A stretch of DNA of 24,000 nucleotides from Actinopolymorpha cephalotaxi (GTDB taxonomy: Bacteria > Actinomycetota > Actinomycetes > Propionibacteriales > Actinopolymorphaceae). The notes under the pieces are model-generated. The model searched no databases and had not been told where the DNA came from. It saw only the letters and a program-made list of their open reading frames with translations. A program made the translations under genes and the position numbers. Shown piece by piece: positions 2,473 to 18,210 of the stretch (position 1 is its first letter; the number at the start of each line of letters is the position of its first letter). The stretch covers positions 1,548,850-1,572,849 of the forward strand of contig NZ_JACBZA010000001.1 of NCBI RefSeq assembly GCF_013408535.1. Direction: 5' to 3'.

Positions 2473-4092
2473 ATGCAGGGTGACTTCCACGTCGACGGAT
2501 ACGACATCGAGGGGTTGCTGGGCGCCGGACCGGCGGGTGAGGTCTGGCTGGCCCGGGAGCCGGCCTCGGGTGCACAGGCGGCCCTGAAGCGGGTCCGTCC
2601 CCGGGACACCGCCGCGCAGGAGGAGGCCGGCCGGATCGTCTCCGCGCTGGAGCCCCTGGACCACCCGCACCTGCTGCGGATCCGGGAGATGCTGCCGTAC
2701 GAGCGTGAGGTGGTGTTCGTCCTCGACTACGCCGAGGGCGGCAGCCTCGGCCAGCTGCTGCTGGCCCGGCCGGCGCTCGACCCCGGTGAGGTCGTCACGG
2801 TGGCGACCGCCATGGCCGGCGCGCTGGAAGCGGTGCACCGGCGCGGCATCGTGCACGGGGACGTGACGCCGGAGAACGTACTCTTCACCGCCGACGCCCG
2901 CCCGCTGCTCGCCGACGCCGGGCTGCTGCGACTCGTGGAGGGCGGCGAGGCTGGCACCGTCGGCTACTCCGACCCGGCTGGCCACGACGGCACGCCGCCG
3001 ACGCCGGCCGGTGACGTCTACGGGCTGGCCGCCGTCTGCTACACCGCGCTGACCGGGGCGACACCGGAGACCGGGGTCGGCCGCCGCCCGCTGCACCAGA
3101 TGGCGCCGGGGGTTCCGCCGGCGCTGGCGCACATCGTCGAGGCCGGCCTGCAGGCCCGGCCCTCACAGCGCCCGGCGATGGCGCAGTTCGGCGCCCAGCT
3201 CGCCGCGGCCTGCCCGACCTCGCCGGTCCGCTTCCCGTCCGGTTCGGGTGGCGGAGACTCCGCGCCGTTCGGTCCGAACCTCGGGCCCGGCACCGAGTCC
3301 GGCACCGACTTGGGCAGCGACTCCGGCACGCGGGGCGGATGGGATCCGGCACGGGGGAGCGGGACCCGGCCGCGCGCAGCCGGGCCGACCCCGCCACCGG
3401 ACTTCCCGAGCGCGTACGGCGACACCGGCGCGGCGCCCGCGGAAGCGGGCCACGCGCCGGCGGCCGAGGCGACGGACTCGGAAGACTCCGAGGACACCGA
3501 GGACACCGAAGGCGTCGACGAGGCCAGGCGTTCGGGCCGCCGGCGGCTGCTCCTGCTGGCCGGTGTTCCGGTGCTGCTGGTGGTGGTCGCGGTCTCCGGC
3601 GTACTCGGCTGGCGGGCCGTCCGCGAGCCCGCCGCCGATCCCACACCGACCTCGACCATGGCGGCCATGTCGCCGGCTGAGGCCCGGTGGGCGAAGGTGC
3701 TGGACGACCTCGACGTACGCCGGGCCAGGGCCTGGAAGGAGTGGAAACCCGCACTGCTCAACCAGGTCTACACGCCAGGCTCCGTCCCGATGAACGACGA
3801 CCTCACCAGGCTGCGGAAGTACGAGCAGGGTGGCGTCACCAGCGTGGACGGTCTTCGTACGCCGATCCGTTCCCTGCATGTGGTGTCGCAGGGCTCGGAC
3901 CGCGTGGTCGTGGACGCCGAGAGCCAGCTGCAGCGCTACCGCATCCAGATCGACGGCAACTACTATCCGCGCGACGGCGAGCCACCGAGGCGTTTCCGCA
4001 TCACCCTCGAACGCTCCGGCACCGACGGCGGCTGGCTGATCGCCGCGAGCAGGGAGATCGCCGGGACGACGCCGGCCGAGCCGTCCCGCTAG
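2473..4092 (+). CDS. Membrane-spanning Hanks-type Ser/Thr kinase-like protein with atypical catalytic loop (paralogue 1)
   Basis: 539 aa. Kinase-fold motifs: G-loop LGAGPAGEVW, beta3 AALK (K39), catalytic loop HGDVTPEN at 128-135 (canonical HRDLKPxN, so Arg->Gly and Lys->Thr), DAG for DFG at 148-150, GTVGYSDPA instead of GT..Y.APE, and DVYGLAAVCYTALTG (subdomain IX). These are followed by a Pro/Gly-rich linker, an acidic run DSEDSEDTEDTE, an RRSGRRR cluster plus one TM helix (about aa 358-380), and an extracytoplasmic C-domain of about 130 aa. Confidence 0.85.
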   Translation: MQGDFHVDGYDIEGLLGAGPAGEVWLAREPASGAQAALKRVRPRDTAAQEEAGRIVSALEPLDHPHLLRIREMLPYEREVVFVLDYAEGGSLGQLLLARPALDPGEVVTVATAMAGALEAVHRRGIVHGDVTPENVLFTADARPLLADAGLLRLVEGGEAGTVGYSDPAGHDGTPPTPAGDVYGLAAVCYTALTGATPETGVGRRPLHQMAPGVPPALAHIVEAGLQARPSQRPAMAQFGAQLAAACPTSPVRFPSGSGGGDSAPFGPNLGPGTESGTDLGSDSGTRGGWDPARGSGTRPRAAGPTPPPDFPSAYGDTGAAPAEAGHAPAAEATDSEDSEDTEDTEGVDEARRSGRRRLLLLAGVPVLLVVVAVSGVLGWRAVREPAADPTPTSTMAAMSPAEARWAKVLDDLDVRRARAWKEWKPALLNQVYTPGSVPMNDDLTRLRKYEQGGVTSVDGLRTPIRSLHVVSQGSDRVVVDAESQLQRYRIQIDGNYYPRDGEPPRRFRITLERSGTDGGWLIAASREIAGTTPAEPSR

Positions 4093-4218: not shown

Positions 4219-5844
4219 ATGGGGGCGCAGTTTCGCGTTCAGGGGTACGACCTGGGTGCGCTGATCAGCGCGAGCGCCACCGGCGAGGTGTGGGAGGCCC
4301 ACCGCCACGGCACCGGTGACCACGTTGCCCTGCGGCGGATCCGCCCCCGCACACCGGACGCACGGGAGGACGTACGCCGGTTGGCGGCCGTCCTCGCCAT
4401 GATCGGCCATCCGCACCTGGTGCGGGTGCACGAGGCGCTGCCCCTCGGGGACGAGGTCGTCTGGGTGCTGGACCACGCCGACGGCGGCAGCCTCGACCAG
4501 CTCCTGCACGGGCGCGGCCAGCTGGATCCCGGTGAGGTGGTCACCACGGCCGCACCGGTGGCCGAGGCACTGGCCGCGGCGCACGAGCGCGGGCTCCTGC
4601 ACGGCGACGTGACTCCGGAGGCGATCCTCTACACCGCCGAGGGGCGGCCCCTGCTCACCGACGTGGGCGTTCTCGCGCTGGTCGAGGGCGGCGAGAGTCT
4701 CGGCACGCACGGCTACACCGATCCCGACGGCCCGCCCGGACCCGCGACCACCCCGGCCGGGGACGTCTACGGGCTGGCCGCGGTCTGCTACACCGCGCTG
4801 ACCGGGGTGGTCCCGCGGCCGGGCCAGGCCCGCCCGCCGCTGGCCGAGGCCGTGCCCGACGCACCACCCGGCCTGCTGCACGCCGTCGGAGCGGGACTTC
4901 AGCCGGTGGCTGCTCGCCGGCCCACCGCCGCGCAGTTCGCCGACCTCCTCTACGCCGCGTGCCCGCCGGCGCCGGTGCGCTTCCCGGTCGGGCTGGTACT
5001 CACCGACGCCGACCTCGCGGCGATGACCGGCGCCTCCCCGGCTCCGGAAGCCCCTGCTGCCACCCCGGAGGACGGATCGCCTCCGGCGAGCCCGACCGCC
5101 GAGCGCACCTCGGCTGATCCGGGTGAGTTCACCGTGCCCGGTGTACCCGGCGGCCCGGACGGCGACCTGGATCTGGACCTGGACGACGAAGACGACGAAC
5201 GCCGCTCACGGATTCGCGTGATCGCCGCCGCGGCGGCCGTGGTGGTGCTGGTCGCCGGCGCGGTCGTCGGCGGGATCGCCTGGGCGAAGCGTTCCGACAA
5301 CGCTCCGGACGCCGGGCGGACGGCGGCGCCGAGCACCTCGCCGACGGCCCCGGCCGCGCCCGAGACTCCGGCCCCGAGCGCGACGAGCCGTCCCACGGCG
5401 AAGCCCACGCCGACGCTGAACAGGTCCGCCACGCCGCGGATTCCACCCGGCCCGGCCGGCGCGGAGGCCAGGTGGCGAAAGGTGCTCGCCACCCTGGACG
5501 CGCGCCGCGCGCAGGCGTACGCCACGAACGACCCGGCAGTGCTCGCGGGCGTCTACTACCCGGCCGGCTCCGACCTGGCTGCCGACGACCGCACCGAGAT
5601 CGACAAGTGCGTGCGCGCGGGCTGCCATCTGGAGGGCCTGCGGTTCGCGGTCCGGACGCTGCACGTCGACAGCGAACGCCCTGACCGGGCGGTGCTCCGG
5701 GTCGTCGACCAGTTGCAGGCGTACTCCGTGGTGTCCGACGACGGGGAACGAGTGCCCCGACCGGCCGGTGAGCCGAAGAACCGCCGGATCACGCTCGTAC
5801 GGACCGGCCAGGGCTGGCTGATCTCCCGGATAGAGGAGCGCTGA
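4219..5844 (+). CDS. Membrane-spanning Hanks-kinase-like protein, probable pseudokinase (paralogue 2)
   Basis: 541 aa, collinear with the upstream paralogue. G-loop degenerate (ISASATGEVW). The beta3 Lys is replaced by Arg (VALRR, position 39). The catalytic loop is HGDVTPEA, so both the Lys and the Mg-binding Asn are lost. DVG replaces DFG, and YTDPD replaces Y.APE. An acidic run DGDLDLDLDDEDDE, an RRSRIR cluster and one TM helix (about aa 333-355) precede a Pro/Ala/Thr-rich spacer and a C-domain related to that of paralogue 1. SD GAGAGG lies 5 nt upstream of the ATG. Confidence 0.85.
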   Translation: MGAQFRVQGYDLGALISASATGEVWEAHRHGTGDHVALRRIRPRTPDAREDVRRLAAVLAMIGHPHLVRVHEALPLGDEVVWVLDHADGGSLDQLLHGRGQLDPGEVVTTAAPVAEALAAAHERGLLHGDVTPEAILYTAEGRPLLTDVGVLALVEGGESLGTHGYTDPDGPPGPATTPAGDVYGLAAVCYTALTGVVPRPGQARPPLAEAVPDAPPGLLHAVGAGLQPVAARRPTAAQFADLLYAACPPAPVRFPVGLVLTDADLAAMTGASPAPEAPAATPEDGSPPASPTAERTSADPGEFTVPGVPGGPDGDLDLDLDDEDDERRSRIRVIAAAAAVVVLVAGAVVGGIAWAKRSDNAPDAGRTAAPSTSPTAPAAPETPAPSATSRPTAKPTPTLNRSATPRIPPGPAGAEARWRKVLATLDARRAQAYATNDPAVLAGVYYPAGSDLAADDRTEIDKCVRAGCHLEGLRFAVRTLHVDSERPDRAVLRVVDQLQAYSVVSDDGERVPRPAGEPKNRRITLVRTGQGWLISRIEER

Positions 5845-13752: not shown

Positions 13753-13786
13753 GTTCGCCGGCATCGGCCGCATCCGGCGGCCGCGC

Positions 13787-14530
13787 TCAGCCCGATACGT
13801 CCACAGCCTCGCCGAACGTGCCACCGGCGCGGAGCGTGGCGATCAGCTCAAGTACGCCGGTCCGGCCGCCGTGGGAGCTTGCCCAGCGGCTCACCACACA
13901 GGCGGCCTGCCGGTACGGCTGGTCCGTGCCGCCCTTGACCGCGGCGGCCCACTTCTCCGTGACGATCGGCAGGGCCTTCCGATAGGGCAGGCGGCATCGG
14001 TCCGCTTCGGACGAGGGCTTCAGGTAGCGGGAGTCGCCCGAGACCAGCACGGCCAGTCCTTCGTCGAACCAGTGCGGCACATCTGCGCGCGTCCTGCCCA
14101 GCCGTTCGTGGAACTCCACGTGGGACAGCTCGTGGGTGGCGATGGTGCGGTTTGCACCGGCGGGTGCGAGCATCAGGGCCGAGGTACCGAACGCCTTTCC
14201 CCTCTCACTGCCACCACCGATCCGCCGGTAGCACGCCGCAGTGCTACAGATCAGCACTCGCGGACGCGTCTTCAGGTCGCCGTAGAACGCGGCGATGTCG
14301 CTTTCCGCCTCATCGACAATTCGCCGGTACGCCGTGTCGCGTCGGTCGGTGTAGATGTCACCGCCCAGTCCAAAGAGCCCGTAGCACCGCGGGCACAGCG
14401 TCGCCGCGATCGCCGGTCGGGTCGCGGCCACCAGCCCGGCGGACACCAGCACGAAGACCACCACCATCCCGGCCACGACCCGCCATCGCCGCCTGCTGTT
14501 CAGGTCGTCGTCTCCGCCTGCCTGGCGCAC
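13787..14530 (-). CDS. Membrane-anchored HExxH (gluzincin-like) metallopeptidase, Cys-rich
   Basis: HELSHVEFHE followed 14 residues later by WFDEGLA, which resembles the M1/MA-clan pattern HExxH...E (third ligand) with WL.EG.A. An N-terminal RRRWR cluster plus a TM helix predicts an extracytoplasmic catalytic domain with 7 Cys, including CPRC. I prefer GTG 14530, which has AGGAGG at 14536-14541 (complement) at 5-nt spacing, over the track start 14581. Confidence 0.68.
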   Translation of the reverse strand: MRQAGGDDDLNSRRRWRVVAGMVVVFVLVSAGLVAATRPAIAATLCPRCYGLFGLGGDIYTDRRDTAYRRIVDEAESDIAAFYGDLKTRPRVLICSTAACYRRIGGGSERGKAFGTSALMLAPAGANRTIATHELSHVEFHERLGRTRADVPHWFDEGLAVLVSGDSRYLKPSSEADRCRLPYRKALPIVTEKWAAAVKGGTDQPYRQAACVVSRWASSHGGRTGVLELIATLRAGGTFGEAVDVSG

Positions 14531-14658
14531 GTCGGCCTCCTGTCCTTCCCGGGGTCCGCCCCCGTGATCATGCGGGATCACCTGTGATCAACGCGGGCCT
14601 TCCGGTCGAGGTTTCGGGGACGACCCGTGTCCCTGGGTGCCCCCCGGGACAGTCGCGG

Positions 14659-14681
14659 TTATCGCGTTTTCGAGATAGCGT
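14659..14681 (+). promoter_or_regulatory. Imperfect palindrome (candidate operator) overlapping a -10-like TAGCGT just upstream of the XRE gene
   Basis: TTATCGCG-TTTT-CGAGATAG (14659-14678) matches at 6 of 8 positions between arms and is AT-rich for this genome. TAGCGT (14676-14681, TAnnnT type) ends 7 nt before ATG 14689. There is no SD, which is compatible with a leaderless transcript. Confidence 0.33.
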
Positions 14682-14688
14682 TTCCGGT

Positions 14689-14994
14689 ATGGCGAACGAG
14701 CCCTCCCGGGCCTCCGCGGACTCCTCGGACTCCGCTGCCGGGGACGACGACCTGCCGGTGATGCCCGGTTTCCGGGAGATGGCGCTGCGGCGGCGGGCCC
14801 TGGCCGAGTCGCTGGTCGACCTGCGCCGCCGGTCCGGGCTGTCGCAGACTCAGGTGGCCGCCCGGATGGGTACGTCCCAGTCGGCGGTCGCCCGGCTGGA
14901 GGCCGGTGAGGCCGACGTACGCCTGTCCACCCTGGAGCGTTACGCCGCCGCCGTCGGTCACCGGCTCGACGTCCGGCTCGGCGGTGACACGTGA
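14689..14994 (+). CDS. XRE-family helix-turn-helix transcriptional regulator
   Basis: 101 aa. HTH core LRRRSGLSQTQVAARMGTSQSAVARLEAGEADVRLSTLERYAAAVGHRLDVRL is preceded by a Ser/Asp-rich tail. The ORF-track entry 14152-14994 is over-extended at the 5' end, where it runs antisense to the peptidase gene. Confidence 0.8.
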   Translation: MANEPSRASADSSDSAAGDDDLPVMPGFREMALRRRALAESLVDLRRRSGLSQTQVAARMGTSQSAVARLEAGEADVRLSTLERYAAAVGHRLDVRLGGDT

Positions 14995-14997
14995 CGC

Positions 14998-15051
14998 CTG
15001 ACCTGTACCGCTGACCGCTGATCGGCAACCGCTGACCGGCAGCCCCTGACC
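14998..15051. repeat. CTGACC repeats in the XRE / ClpP-like spacer
   Basis: CTGACC occurs at 14998, 15011, 15032 and 15046, plus CTGATC at 15018. The extended unit CCGCTGACCG recurs. The repeats fill most of the 77-bp spacer ahead of SD GGAGGAG (15060-15066). Confidence 0.7.
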
Positions 15052-15071
15052 GACAACCCGGAGGAGCCGTC

Positions 15072-15635
15072 ATGACCGACGACCGGGCGACGACCTTCGA
15101 CTCCTACGTCGCCGAGCAGTTGTTCCAGCGCCGGGTCGTGCTGGCCCGGGGCTTCCTCGACGAGGAGCACGCGACCCGTACGGCTGCCCAGCTGCTGACC
15201 CTGGAGGCGCTGGCGCCCGACCCGATCCAGCTGCACCTGTCCTGCCCGGACGGCACGCTGGCCGCCGCGCTCAGCCTGGCCGACACGGTGCGGGTCCTGC
15301 GCGCCGAGCTCACCGCGGTCGCGGTCGGTGAGGTGAACGGCCCGGCGGTCGGGGCGTTCGCGGCGGCGCCGGTGCGGGTCGCCTACCCACACGCGCGGTT
15401 CCTGCTGGCCGAGCCGAAGGCGTCCGAGCGCAGCGGCACCGCCTCCGAGGTGGACACCTACGCCCAGGAGTACCTCCGGCAGCGCGACGACCTGGTGGAC
15501 CTGCTGGCGGAGGCGACCGGGCGGCAGGCCGAGTCGGTCGCCGCCGACCTGCGCGCGGGCCGGTTCCTCACCGCCGAGGAGGCGGTCGGCTACGGCCTCG
15601 CCCAGCGGGTGGCCTCGGGGCGTTCCGTCCGCTGA
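15072..15635 (+). CDS. ClpP-fold protein lacking the catalytic Ser-His-Asp triad (pseudo-protease)
   Basis: 187 aa with ClpP-like blocks throughout: LSCPDG (for INSPGG), VGAFAAA, RVAYPHARFLLAEP (for R..LP.SR.MIHQP) and FLTAEEAVGYGLAQRV (for F.SA.EA..YGL.D.V). By hand alignment the triad positions read Ala92 (Ser), Ala113 (His) and Gly163 (Asp). SD GGAGGAG lies 5 nt upstream. Confidence 0.78.
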   Translation: MTDDRATTFDSYVAEQLFQRRVVLARGFLDEEHATRTAAQLLTLEALAPDPIQLHLSCPDGTLAAALSLADTVRVLRAELTAVAVGEVNGPAVGAFAAAPVRVAYPHARFLLAEPKASERSGTASEVDTYAQEYLRQRDDLVDLLAEATGRQAESVAADLRAGRFLTAEEAVGYGLAQRVASGRSVR

Positions 15636-16504
15636 GCCGGCGGCGCTGCGAGGTCCACCGGCGCCGCAGAGTCCACCGGCGCCGCAGAGTCCACCGGCGC
15701 CGCGAAGTCCACCGGTGCCTCGAACGCCGCCCGCCTGGCCGCCCGGCGCAGCGTGCCGAGCACCACCCGGCCGGCGAGCAGGATCAGGACGGCGTTCACC
15801 ACACCGCGTACGAAGTCCCACCCGAACGACGTGGTGACGTAGAACGCCGCGTAGTGGCGGAGGTTGGTGAGCACCGGCTCGCCCGCGGCGTAGCTCATCC
15901 CGGCCGGCAGCGAGGTCGAGAAGGGCCAGAACGACAGGTTCAGCAGCGCGCCGTACGCGAAGCCCGCCACGCCCGCGTACCCCGCGAGCAGCATCCGCTC
16001 GGCCCGGCCGGAAGCGTGCGGCAGGAGACCGGCAGCCAGCCCGACCCAGGCCAGGCCGACCATCTGGAACGGCAGCCACGGCCCCACGCCGCCGGTGGCG
16101 AGCCCGCTGGCCAGGATCATCACCGAACCCAGCGCGAACCCGAACCCCGCGCCGAACACCCGGGCGGCCAGGATCACCAGGAAGAGCGTCGGTTCGAACC
16201 CTCCGGTGCCCGGACTGAGTGCCCGCAGCGCGGTCCCGGCCGCGGCCAGCACGCCCAGCATGGCGACCGCCTTGGCATCCATGCCGCCCTCGGTCAGCTC
16301 GGCCAGCACGACCGCGATGACGAGGGGAAGCAGGACGAGGAAGAGGTACGGCGCGTTCGGGCCGGCGCCGCCAGCCGCGTCACCGGCTCCGGTCAGGAAC
16401 GGCCAGCCGAACCCCAGCACGCCGGCCAGGCCTGCCGCGGCGAGGGCCGCGACCGACCTGGGCCGCAGCCGGACGACCTCGGACCGCCCGGACCGTTCGG
16501 TCAC
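15590..16504 (-). CDS. ECF-transporter substrate-capture (S) component, multi-pass membrane protein
   Basis: GTG 16504 overlaps the upstream ATPase stop in a GTGA junction. The 304-aa product has about 6-7 hydrophobic helices and is the last gene of the ECF operon. The track entry 15590-16969 is over-extended at the 5' end. The C-terminal tail carries the (A)APVD(S/F/L)A x4 repeat, and its last 46 nt overlap the convergent ClpP-like gene. Confidence 0.72.
   Translation of the reverse strand: MTERSGRSEVVRLRPRSVAALAAAGLAGVLGFGWPFLTGAGDAAGGAGPNAPYLFLVLLPLVIAVVLAELTEGGMDAKAVAMLGVLAAAGTALRALSPGTGGFEPTLFLVILAARVFGAGFGFALGSVMILASGLATGGVGPWLPFQMVGLAWVGLAAGLLPHASGRAERMLLAGYAGVAGFAYGALLNLSFWPFSTSLPAGMSYAAGEPVLTNLRHYAAFYVTTSFGWDFVRGVVNAVLILLAGRVVLGTLRRAARRAAFEAPVDFAAPVDSAAPVDSAAPVDLAAPPAQRTERPEATRWARP
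15653..15724. repeat. 18-bp tandem repeat x4 (coding, C-terminal tail of the S component)
   Basis: Units are gtccaccggcgccgcaga (15653-15670 and 15671-15688, identical), gtccaccggcgccgcgaa (15689-15706) and gtccaccggtgcctcgaa (15707-15724). On the minus strand they encode APVDF-AAPVDS-AAPVDS-AAPVDL. Confidence 0.9.
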
Positions 16505-18210
16505 GACGCGGGTTCCAGCGCGGCCGCCACGTCGGTGACAGTGAGCCAGGGCTGAGGCCGCAGGATCTTCGCCACCTGCGGGGCGAACGTCGGCGACGCC
16601 GACACCACCGAACCCACCGGCCCGTCGGCGACCACCTCCCCGTCGGCGAGCACGACGACCCGGGTGGCCACCTCCGCGACGAGTTCGACGTCGTGAGTGG
16701 CGAACACCACGCCGTGCCCGGCGTCGGCGAGGTCCCGGACGATCCGCGTCAACCGCGCCTTGGCGGTGTAGTCCAGGCCGCGGGTGGGCTCGTCCAGGAG
16801 CAGCAGCGGTGGCTGCCCGGTGAGCACGACGGCCAGCGCCAGGCACAGCCGCTGCCCCTCGGACAGGTCGCGGGGATGACGGTTCGGGGGTACGCCGGGC
16901 GCCAGCCGCTCCAGCAGCCGGGCACAGCTCCCGGCCGGTGCGTCGAAGTCCCGATCGGCCTGGCCGCACTCCTGCGCCACCGTTTCCGCGTACAGCAGGC
17001 TGCCCGGATCCTGCGGCACCAGCCCGACCGCCCGGGCGATCGCGCGCGGCTTGGCGGTGGCCGGGTCCACCGTGCCCACCGGGTCCGCCCGGCCGACCCG
17101 GACCGTGCCCGCCACCGGACGCACCAGCCCCACCAGTGAGCCGAGCAACGTGGACTTGCCCGCGCCGTTGCGGCCCATCAGCGCGACCACCTCGCCGGCC
17201 GCGACGTCGAGGGTGAGGTCGCGCACCGCCGGCGGCTGCGCGGATCGGCGGCCGCCGTACCGGACGGTCAGCTCGTGCACCGTCGCCACCGTCCTCACCG
17301 GGTCGGTCGTGTCCACCGTGTCCACCGTGTCAACCGAGCGCCGGCCGTTCGAGACAGGCTTTCGGGGTACGCCGGTCCGCACCGGCGGGCGCATCGGCGC
17401 GAGACGTTCGCGCAGTGGACCGGCCATCCGCCGGGCGTCCCGGACGCTGAGGGGGAGCGGGTCCCACCCGGCGAGCCGGCCGAGCGCGACCACCGGCGGC
17501 GCGACCGAGGAACGGGCCATCATCTGCGCGGGTGGGCCGACCTCCAGCGCGTCGCCGGTCCCGCGGACCAGCACCACCCGGTCGGCGTACTGCACCACGC
17601 GCTCGAGCCGGTGCTCGGCCAGCAGCACCGTCACCCCGAGGTCGTGCACCAGCCGCTGGAGGGCGGCGAGCACCTCCTCGGCGGCCTGCGGGTCCAGCGC
17701 CGACGTCGGCTCGTCCAGCACCAGGATCCGGGGATGGGTGGTGAGGACCGCGCCGATCGCGACCCGCTGCTGCTGCCCGCCGGACAGCGAGGCGATCGGC
17801 CGCCCGCGTACGCCGGCCAGGCCGAGCAGGTCGAGGGTCTCCTCCACGCGGGTACGCATCACGTCCGGCGGCAGCCCCAGCGACTCCATGCCGTACGCCA
17901 GTTCGTCTTCCACCGTGTCGGTGACGAACCCGGCGAGGGGATCCTGCCCGACCACACCCACCACGTCGGCGAGGTCACGTGGCCGGTGGGTGCGGGTGTC
18001 CCGGCCGTCGACGAGGACGCGGCCGGCCATCGTCCCGCCGGTGAAGTGCGGCACCAGCCCGTTGACCGCCCGCAGCAGCGTGCTCTTGCCGGCGCCGGTC
18101 TGCCCGACGACCAGGCACAGCTCGCCCTCGGCGACCTCGAACGTGACGTCCTGCAGGACCGGCGACGCGGCGCCGGGATAGCGCACGGTCACCGACTCGA
18201 ACCTGATCAC
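16501..18210 (-). CDS. ECF-type ABC transporter, fused duplicated ATPase (EcfA-EcfA')
   Basis: 569 aa from GTG 18210, which has SD GGAGG upstream and a GTGA overlap with the EcfT stop. It contains two ABC cassettes. Cassette 1: Walker A GQTGAGKST, signature LSGGQQQR, Walker B ILVLDEPTS. Cassette 2: Walker A GRNGAGKST, signature LSEGQRLC, Walker B LLLLDEPTRG. The track ORF 16501-19302 is over-extended at the 5' end. Confidence 0.92.
   Translation of the reverse strand: MIRFESVTVRYPGAASPVLQDVTFEVAEGELCLVVGQTGAGKSTLLRAVNGLVPHFTGGTMAGRVLVDGRDTRTHRPRDLADVVGVVGQDPLAGFVTDTVEDELAYGMESLGLPPDVMRTRVEETLDLLGLAGVRGRPIASLSGGQQQRVAIGAVLTTHPRILVLDEPTSALDPQAAEEVLAALQRLVHDLGVTVLLAEHRLERVVQYADRVVLVRGTGDALEVGPPAQMMARSSVAPPVVALGRLAGWDPLPLSVRDARRMAGPLRERLAPMRPPVRTGVPRKPVSNGRRSVDTVDTVDTTDPVRTVATVHELTVRYGGRRSAQPPAVRDLTLDVAAGEVVALMGRNGAGKSTLLGSLVGLVRPVAGTVRVGRADPVGTVDPATAKPRAIARAVGLVPQDPGSLLYAETVAQECGQADRDFDAPAGSCARLLERLAPGVPPNRHPRDLSEGQRLCLALAVVLTGQPPLLLLDEPTRGLDYTAKARLTRIVRDLADAGHGVVFATHDVELVAEVATRVVVLADGEVVADGPVGSVVSASPTFAPQVAKILRPQPWLTVTDVAAALEPAS

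Follow-up and report, generated by a model that had tools for sequence, protein, structure and literature searches.

A predicted XRE regulator and a ClpP homologue without catalytic residues form a conserved gene cassette in Actinomycetota

A stretch of 24,000 nt from Actinopolymorpha cephalotaxi (contig NZ_JACBZA010000001.1; hereafter the window) carries, in high-GC actinobacterial DNA, a gene for a small XRE-type helix-turn-helix (HTH) regulator followed by a gene for a ClpP homologue in which all three catalytic residues are replaced. We call the first protein XRE and the second pseudo-ClpP. Our data demonstrate that XRE is the dedicated partner of pseudo-ClpP and that the linkage of the XRE gene to a pseudo-ClpP gene is near-obligate. 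The two-gene cassette is widespread in Actinomycetota, where it probably tunes the essential Clp protease system. In this phylum the ClpP1P2 protease is essential and is a validated antibiotic target (acyldepsipeptides (ADEPs), bortezomib, beta-lactones). We tentatively propose that an autoregulated XRE repressor and a non-catalytic ClpP-fold partner, acting by binding, would tie Clp status to transcription; we consider this quite possible but hold it with reserve. The two open reading frames (ORFs), their common strand and the 77 bp between them had been described in an earlier reading of the letters of the window (hereafter the sequence-only reading), and are as described there.

Results

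Pseudo-ClpP has the ClpP fold and lacks the catalytic triad

The sequence-only reading had recognized pseudo-ClpP as a ClpP homologue by hand alignment, and both profile and structure comparisons bear this out. Its match to PF00574 scores 100.7 bits and extends over profile positions 9-180 of 182, and the protein aligns end to end with solved ClpPs at E-values from 1e-24 downward. Its AlphaFold2 (AF2) model has a predicted local distance difference test score of 91.9, and the best Foldseek match of this model is chain 6vgq_A of Mycobacterium tuberculosis ClpP1P2 (template modelling (TM) score 0.89, root-mean-square deviation 1.7). Superposition on the ClpPs of M. tuberculosis, Thermus, Neisseria and Escherichia coli gives TM scores of 0.83-0.89. 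The protein nevertheless falls well short of each of the curated NCBIfam cut-offs for ClpP, the best model being NF009205 (114 vs 228 bits), with TIGR00493 at 87.5 vs 308.6 bits. A phage prohead protease was also considered and rejected: the phage ClpP-like models of NCBIfam reach no more than 28-30 bits, whereas cellular ClpP reaches 114.

The triad positions were mapped on the E. coli ClpP sequence, in which the precursor positions Ser111/His136/Asp185 checked out. Alignment to this reference shows that the catalytic His is replaced by Ala113 (RFLL[A]EP) and the catalytic Asp by Gly163 (DLRA[G]RF), as the sequence-only reading had it. The Ser-to-Ala replacement that it also proposed depends on the alignment register: MAFFT and two of three phmmer alignments place Gly90 (GEVN[G]PAVG) in the Ser column, and one phmmer alignment places Ala92 there, with a 2-residue gap. 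There is no Ser anywhere in that segment, and the conclusion of triad loss is therefore independent of the register. With no Ser, His or Asp at the triad columns, pseudo-ClpP is predicted to be incapable of acting as a Ser-His-Asp protease.

A large family shares the loss and is under purifying selection

A word-indexed search returned 47 triad-less homologues, with eight canonical ClpPs ranked below them; the triad is missing in every one of these 47 close homologues of the window protein. When 1.84 billion representative proteins were searched with a profile, 336 of them (clusters at 50% identity) matched at E <= 1e-30, and the best 150 of the 336 likewise lack the triad, bar two multi-domain oddities. 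In a set of 196 sequences without the triad, Gly occupies the Ser column in 191 (97%) and the Asp column in 143 (73%); the His column shows no constraint (S, R, T, A, C and others). The ratio of nonsynonymous to synonymous substitution rates (dN/dS) of pseudo-ClpP against its orthologues is 0.25-0.39. As the sequence-only reading had envisaged, the orthologues (about 190 clusters) thus lack the triad too, and substitution rates indicate that the dead enzyme is retained by purifying selection and is not decaying. That the gene is instead a strain-specific decaying pseudogene or an annotation artefact has a vanishingly small probability. The missing triad, and nothing else, speaks for it, and it is refuted by the intact ORF with a good Shine-Dalgarno sequence, by hundreds of clusters of homologues with the same substitutions, by a dN/dS well below 1 and by the confident predicted fold.

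The named members of the family are all Actinomycetota, as far as sampled, and they are labelled throughout the databases as "ATP-dependent Clp protease proteolytic subunit". The family profile is roughly equidistant from all solved ClpPs (118-140 bits), which does not separate an origin from ClpP1 from an origin from ClpP2. About 40% of the members have an N-terminal extension of 35-90 aa containing 21-41% Pro; the window protein is without it. Two sequences, P0157 (363 aa) and P0127 (470 aa), join a ClpP-like domain that keeps His and Asp to a second, triad-less ClpP domain, and in the first domain of P0157 the Ser is replaced by Ala. A search of the full-text literature found no description of the family or of its pairing with XRE; subscription journals were mostly outside its coverage, and an earlier description is possible.

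The features by which ClpP contacts its partners have been lost as well. Throughout the family, the axial N-terminal loop is deleted (E. coli residues 5-13 and 16-22 are gaps), the pocket positions Y60/Y62/F82/F112/L114/L189 of E. coli ClpP are variable and polar or small, the inter-ring sensor Arg170 is lost or variable, and the handle is ~6 residues shorter than in canonical ClpP. The window protein has Q53/H55/V75 at E. coli positions 60/62/82. In Streptomyces ClpP2, Tyr-to-Val replacement at the equivalents of positions 62 and 82 abolishes the docking of ClpX, ClpC1 and ClpC2, and the hydrophobic-pocket residues used here are those defined in that study (PMC9765437). Judging from these substitutions, pseudo-ClpP very probably can neither dock ClpX or ClpC nor bind ADEP.

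The XRE gene is tied to the pseudo-ClpP gene

Starting from the pseudo-ClpP gene, we found an XRE orthologue directly upstream in A. pittospori, A. rutila, A. alba, three metagenome-assembled genomes (MAGs), a Streptosporangiaceae MAG and three metagenome contigs. Those of these loci that lie outside the Actinopolymorphaceae have unrelated neighbourhoods. Among cultured organisms, Nonomuraea soli and Phytohabitans aurantiacus have the pair as well. The converse survey started from XRE: a soil metagenome scan gave more than 541 relatives, the best 80 were examined, and 66 of the 80 had at least 400 bp of downstream sequence. A triad-less ClpP homologue is the next gene downstream, on the same strand, in 65 of these 66 loci. 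Moreover, the XRE stop and the pseudo-ClpP start overlap by 4 bp in at least 40 of 70 pairs, by 8 bp in four and by 1 bp in four. The functional tie between the two genes that the sequence-only reading had suggested from a single locus is thus supported by linkage and by overlap.

XRE, a linker and pseudo-ClpP are fused in frame in at least three cases (L065, 2983-4185; L105, 2971-4056; and P0082). Their linkers are long, Pro/Gly-rich and collagen-like (PGxPG). The P0082 fusion is about 50% identical to those of L065 and L105, occurs on six contigs and bears the JGI name ClpP/XRE protein, so that the fusions span at least two lineages that are about 50% identical to each other. The N-terminal PGF motif of XRE (see below) is degenerate in P0082 (EPLRQMA).

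The spacer between the two genes is shorter in A. rutila than in the window and near zero in A. pittospori. Within it, a local tandem duplication, ACCGCTGAYCGGCA, at 15007-15041, together with a third partial copy, explains why 77 bp separate the genes here in place of the 4-bp overlap that is usual in the relatives.

XRE is a conserved HigA-like protein

XRE matches PF01381 (HTH_3) at 42.7 bits and PF13560 (HTH_31) at 40.4 bits, and the solved structures nearest to it are M. tuberculosis HigA3 and HigA2 and Streptococcus pneumoniae HigA (35-42 bits). An invariant motif, LPxxPGFREMAxRR (residues 22-35), precedes the HTH. In the AF2 model, residues 1-18 are disordered and the PGF of this motif caps a long helix (residues 28-49). 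The window protein ends in ...LGGDT; the C-termini are unconserved among the orthologues, and there is no conserved Ala-Ala.

Orthologues with 61-95% identity occur in Actinopolymorphaceae, Streptosporangiales, Micromonosporaceae and Acidimicrobiales, the window protein being 91% identical to that of A. rutila and 99% identical to that of A. singaporensis over 74% of the length. The dN/dS of XRE is 0.21-0.37. In the same distant loci XRE is 66-73% identical and pseudo-ClpP 42-46%, and the regulator is thus more conserved than its partner. At E <= 1e-15 the XRE family comprises 6857 clusters (90% identity), all of which are labelled just "helix-turn-helix protein".

A conserved palindrome overlaps the predicted -10 element of the XRE gene

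The alignment of the Actinopolymorpha loci shows an AT-rich island immediately 5' of the XRE start, and this island is a TATCTC-N6-GAGATA palindrome. The window copy has one mismatch and is the sole match in the 24 kb at one mismatch or fewer (0.00 expected, 100 shuffles). Six related loci (A. rutila, A. pittospori, A. alba, L009, L011 and L012) have it without a mismatch, and it is recognisable in the distant loci L004, L031 and L033, with the same 11-nt offset from the start codon in the loci read by eye. When up to two mismatches are allowed, 62 of the 80 metagenome loci have it no more than ~150 nt ahead of the XRE match. Several loci of the Acidimicrobiales type have a second, overlapping half-site (GAGATAyCATAynnGAGGTA).

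A TANNNT hexamer overlaps the right arm of the palindrome in the window (TAGCGT) and recurs at the same offset in L004 (TACTTT), L031 (TATCCT), L033 (TACCGT) and L030 (TAGCGT). No Shine-Dalgarno sequence precedes the XRE ATG. A promoter and terminator scan found nothing in the region with the E. coli-type sigma-70 consensus that it uses, the host being a high-GC actinobacterium. Since a Shine-Dalgarno sequence is missing and TANNNT lies 7 nt before the ATG, a geometry known from actinobacterial promoters, the XRE mRNA is probably leaderless. We infer that XRE binds the candidate palindrome, and because this would cover the -10 element, XRE is predicted to repress its own transcription.

In Acidimicrobiales an active clpP diverges from the cassette

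Upstream sequence was sufficient for a survey in 58 metagenome loci. In 21 of them, from Acidimicrobiales, a ClpP gene is divergent from XRE and shares its intergenic region. The encoded ClpPs have an intact Ser/His/Asp triad, the full N-terminal loop and Tyr at position 62, with the motifs GMGMSAAAM and IMIHQG[ST]A. They are 80-93% identical across very many soil sequences, the named ones being Acidimicrobiales MAGs, and they are closer to classical single ClpPs than to actinobacterial ClpP1 or ClpP2; by this comparison, a ClpP2-like identity was ruled out. In L116 (6076-7639) and L117 (6044-7639) the order is clpP (+), a gap of 55-87 bp, XRE (-) and pseudo-ClpP (-), and the palindrome lies in the shared intergenic region. 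The three-gene cassette is also found in L045, L053, L066 and others. This divergent coupling to a triad-intact clpP makes a link between the cassette and real Clp genes, as the sequence-only reading had imagined it, plausible.

Genomic context

The gene order gcvT-XRE-pseudo-ClpP-ECF is shared by A. rutila, A. pittospori, A. alba and related MAGs. Given this synteny across Actinopolymorphaceae, the pair itself is not accessory, contrary to the sequence-only reading, which had placed it in an accessory block; only the neighbouring HExxH gene (Table 1) is inserted. It belongs to a block of ~900 bp (13753-14655) that is missing from A. rutila, A. pittospori and related MAGs and has therefore been inserted in this genome alone, where it separates gcvT from the XRE promoter. 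The sole Pfam match of its product is a weak one to Peptidase_MA_2.

Table 1. Positions of the cassette and of adjoining features in the window
Feature	Position	Strand	Description
HExxH membrane protein	13787-14581	-	264 aa; N-terminal transmembrane segment; motif HELSHVEFHE (HExxH-like)
Candidate palindromic operator TATCGCGTTTTCGAGATA	14660-14677	.	Family consensus TATCTC-N6-GAGATA; ends 11 nt before XRE start codon
-10-like hexamer TAGCGT (TANNNT)	14676-14681	+	Overlaps palindrome right arm; ends 7 nt before ATG
XRE/HigA-like HTH regulator	14689-14994	+	101 aa; disordered acidic/Ser-rich N-terminus; four-helix HTH core
Intergenic spacer	14995-15071	+	77 bp, unusually long for the cassette
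Pseudo-ClpP Shine-Dalgarno sequence GGAGGAG	15060-15066	+	From the sequence
Predicted catalytically dead ClpP homologue (pseudo-ClpP)	15072-15635	+	187 aa
Pseudo-ClpP triad positions	Gly90 15339-15341; Ala113 15408-15410; Gly163 15558-15560	+	From the alignment

The neighbours of the pair in the window are genes of core metabolism: lipA, lipB, two Ser/Thr kinases, an epimerase, the E2 and E3 components of a 2-oxoacid dehydrogenase, pepA and gcvT. The kinase genes, 2473-4092 (+) and 4219-5844 (+), are adjacent and encode ~540 aa each, with lipB on one side and the epimerase/E2/E3 genes on the other. The XRE and pseudo-ClpP genes are followed by an ECF-type transporter and DUF3043. A convergent ORF for a membrane protein (15590-16969, -), probably the substrate component of the ECF transporter, overlaps the 3' end of the pseudo-ClpP gene by 46 bp, likewise in A. 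pittospori. Its C-terminus carries APVD[SFL]A repeats, which are encoded by three to four 18-nt tandem repeats (GTCCACCGGCGCCGCAGA) at 15640-15715.

No biosynthetic cluster was seen near the pair in the neighbourhoods inspected. No third conserved gene of the cassette was found either, a HATPase_c_2 gene being present upstream only in the related loci L004 and L033. None of the PADLOC models matches the ClpP-like protein, and XRE gives generic HTH matches only; a reading as a defence system was dropped for this reason.

Discussion

We propose that a conserved actinobacterial cassette is present in reduced form at the A. cephalotaxi locus. In this model, which is the best supported of those considered, the HigA-like XRE repressor, translated from a probably leaderless mRNA, would bind TATCTC-N6-GAGATA over its own -10 element and so autoregulate an operon of two genes, the second of which codes for a non-catalytic ClpP-fold protein. 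Pseudo-ClpP would serve as a binding module that associates with XRE, with which it would be co-translated and to which it is covalently fused in some lineages, and it may associate with genuine ClpP rings too. Through either association, the cassette would be transcribed according to the state of the Clp protease, and so would the divergent active clpP in the loci that have one.

Several observations weigh against this model. There is no clpP gene adjacent to the cassette in the window, so that the link to Clp is, for Actinopolymorpha, guilt by association from another order. Because the handle is shorter and the inter-ring sensor is gone, stacking of pseudo-ClpP on real ClpP rings is uncertain, and tethering a ring of seven subunits to a dimeric HTH would make for an odd geometry. 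Pseudo-ClpP survives without XRE in several lineages and must there have a role that does not need XRE. The L006 MAG, whose pseudo-ClpP is 92% identical to that of the window, keeps the pseudo-ClpP gene and has lost most of the XRE gene: a deletion (L006, 4890-5000) runs from the gcvT stop into XRE, removing the operator and leaving the last ~45-60 nt of XRE and an intact ClpP-like gene, which is now presumably read through from gcvT. Solitary pseudo-ClpP genes also occur in Thermasporomyces, in 17 Dactylosporangium/Micromonosporaceae loci and in L035. The Dactylosporangium loci (L013-L029; for example L014, 4237-5205, -) encode a pseudo-ClpP of 198 aa with a short Pro-containing N-terminus, and neither XRE nor the palindrome is present in them. 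The gene preceding it in these loci is divergent, and its product looks CheX/CheC-like by eye.

An alternative arrangement of the same parts, which we regard as unlikely, is that pseudo-ClpP is no protease subunit but one half of a split transcription factor, responsible for sensing or oligomerisation. It would read the assembly or occupancy of genuine ClpP rings, or Clp-derived peptides, and thereby set clp expression. Here the ClpP-shaped module would bind XRE, possibly via the invariant N-terminal LPxxPGF motif, which resembles the [L/I]GF loops used by ClpX and ClpC for docking onto ClpP. If true, a protease mimic would act as a feedback sensor, and a previously unknown clpP regulator would exist in Acidimicrobiia and other Actinomycetota.

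The Clp cores of cyanobacteria and plastids are established to contain non-catalytic ClpR subunits. Like the ClpRs of cyanobacteria, plastids and apicoplasts, pseudo-ClpP has the ClpP fold without the triad, is maintained by selection and occurs alongside catalytic ClpPs. It may accordingly be asked whether pseudo-ClpP is a structural subunit that co-assembles with ClpP1/ClpP2, in mixed rings or as one ring of a double ring, and tunes or inhibits the core, XRE being only a transcription factor that does not contact it. This is somewhat unlikely, although the fold is preserved including the handle and under purifying selection, although pseudo-ClpP persists without XRE in several lineages, and although it lies near an active clpP in Acidimicrobiales. 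Against these points stand the loss of the axial loops, the pocket aromatics and the inter-ring Arg, the ~6 residues missing from the handle, the Pro-rich extensions of 35-90 aa on ~40% of the members and the lack of a dedicated clpP partner near most loci, and both the HTH fusions and the widespread 4-bp overlaps suggest that pseudo-ClpP and XRE are physical partners. ClpR differs further in that pseudo-ClpP is confined to Actinomycetota, as sampled, and is the cargo of a dedicated XRE, to which it is sometimes fused. ClpR is moreover defined by its co-assembly with ClpP; the likeness of pseudo-ClpP to it is one of sequence and predicted fold. A type II toxin-antitoxin-like system, in which the dead ClpP would be a dominant-negative poison of the essential ClpP1P2 core and XRE its antitoxin and autorepressor, is improbable. 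Overproduced ClpP active-site mutants are indeed dominant-negative in mycobacteria, XRE has its closest solved relatives among the M. tuberculosis HigA antitoxins, and the small regulator-first operon with 4-bp overlaps and a palindromic candidate operator would suit such a system. However, the supposed toxin is intact without its antitoxin in L006, Thermasporomyces, Dactylosporangium and L035, while XRE is almost never without its partner (65/66 paired). Such an asymmetry is what one would expect of an effector whose dedicated regulator can be dispensed with, the opposite of toxin-antitoxin pairs. Furthermore, the synteny is stable across the family and is not patchy or mobile, fusions with long flexible linkers occur, and PADLOC has no match for the ClpP-like protein.

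The sequence-only reading had also raised the possibility that pseudo-ClpP, as a ClpP-shaped protein without activity, is a decoy for Clp ATPases or adaptors, and one may extend this to a sponge for ADEP-type antibiotics aimed at the ClpP hydrophobic pocket, given that ADEP self-resistance by an extra ClpP exists in Streptomyces. This is highly improbable. The pocket is not conserved (Q53/H55/V75 in the window protein), the N-terminal loops that contact the ATPases are deleted, and no biosynthetic cluster lies nearby. His55 and Val75 occur naturally at docking positions whose engineered equivalents in ClpP2 lose ATPase binding (PMC9765437).

The regulators ClgR and PopR, which act with clpP1P2/clpP3P4 in Streptomyces, Corynebacterium and Mycobacterium, are likewise small XRE-type HTH proteins tied to clpP-family genes, and in Acidimicrobiales the likeness extends to the position of XRE beside a catalytic clpP. 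Of the parallel that the sequence-only reading drew with them, the layout holds, while the operator, the C-terminus and the nearest solved relatives do not. ClgR recognizes GTTCGC-N5-GCG and PopR TCTGCC-N3-GGCAGA, and regulators of the ClgR/PopR type carry a C-terminal Ala-Ala degron that makes them Clp substrates (PMC9775585). The operator candidate TATCTC-N6-GAGATA is neither of these motifs, and the XRE family has no conserved C-terminal Ala-Ala. Moreover, ClgR and PopR are activators, whereas the position of the XRE operator predicts a repressor; the downstream gene encodes a dead ClpP in place of an active pair; and the HTH is closest to HigA. With the HigA antitoxins (M. tuberculosis HigA2/HigA3, S. 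pneumoniae HigA), XRE shares the closest solved HTH, small size, a two-gene overlapping operon and, by prediction only, autoregulation. It differs from them in that its partner is not a RelE/ParE-fold toxin and persists without XRE, in that the regulator gene comes first, and in that the LPxxPGFREMAxRR segment before the HTH falls outside the best profile alignments to solved HigA.

Among ClpP paralogues with a defective triad, Listeria monocytogenes ClpP1 is active only in the ClpP1/ClpP2 heterocomplex, and its structures 6sfx_A and 4jcq_A are among the top profile matches (~134 bits). The Listeria protein still has Ser and His and becomes active again within the heterocomplex, whereas pseudo-ClpP is without all three triad residues. 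Non-catalytic ClpP paralogues were thus known before; what is added here is a widespread cassette of XRE and pseudo-ClpP, a conserved operator candidate and, in one order, an attached active clpP.

Taken together, these results correct a systematic annotation error, in that triad-less proteins have been labelled as proteolytic subunits. The cassette is carried by cultured organisms, among them Actinopolymorpha rutila DSM 18448, A. pittospori DSM 45354, Nonomuraea soli and Phytohabitans aurantiacus. If the proposed model is true, a large unannotated family of dead ClpP homologues, of at least 336 clusters (50% identity, E <= 1e-30), would together with its dedicated XRE regulators constitute a new layer of Clp control in Actinomycetota, wherein a pseudo-enzyme has been recruited to regulate or sense its catalytic relative.

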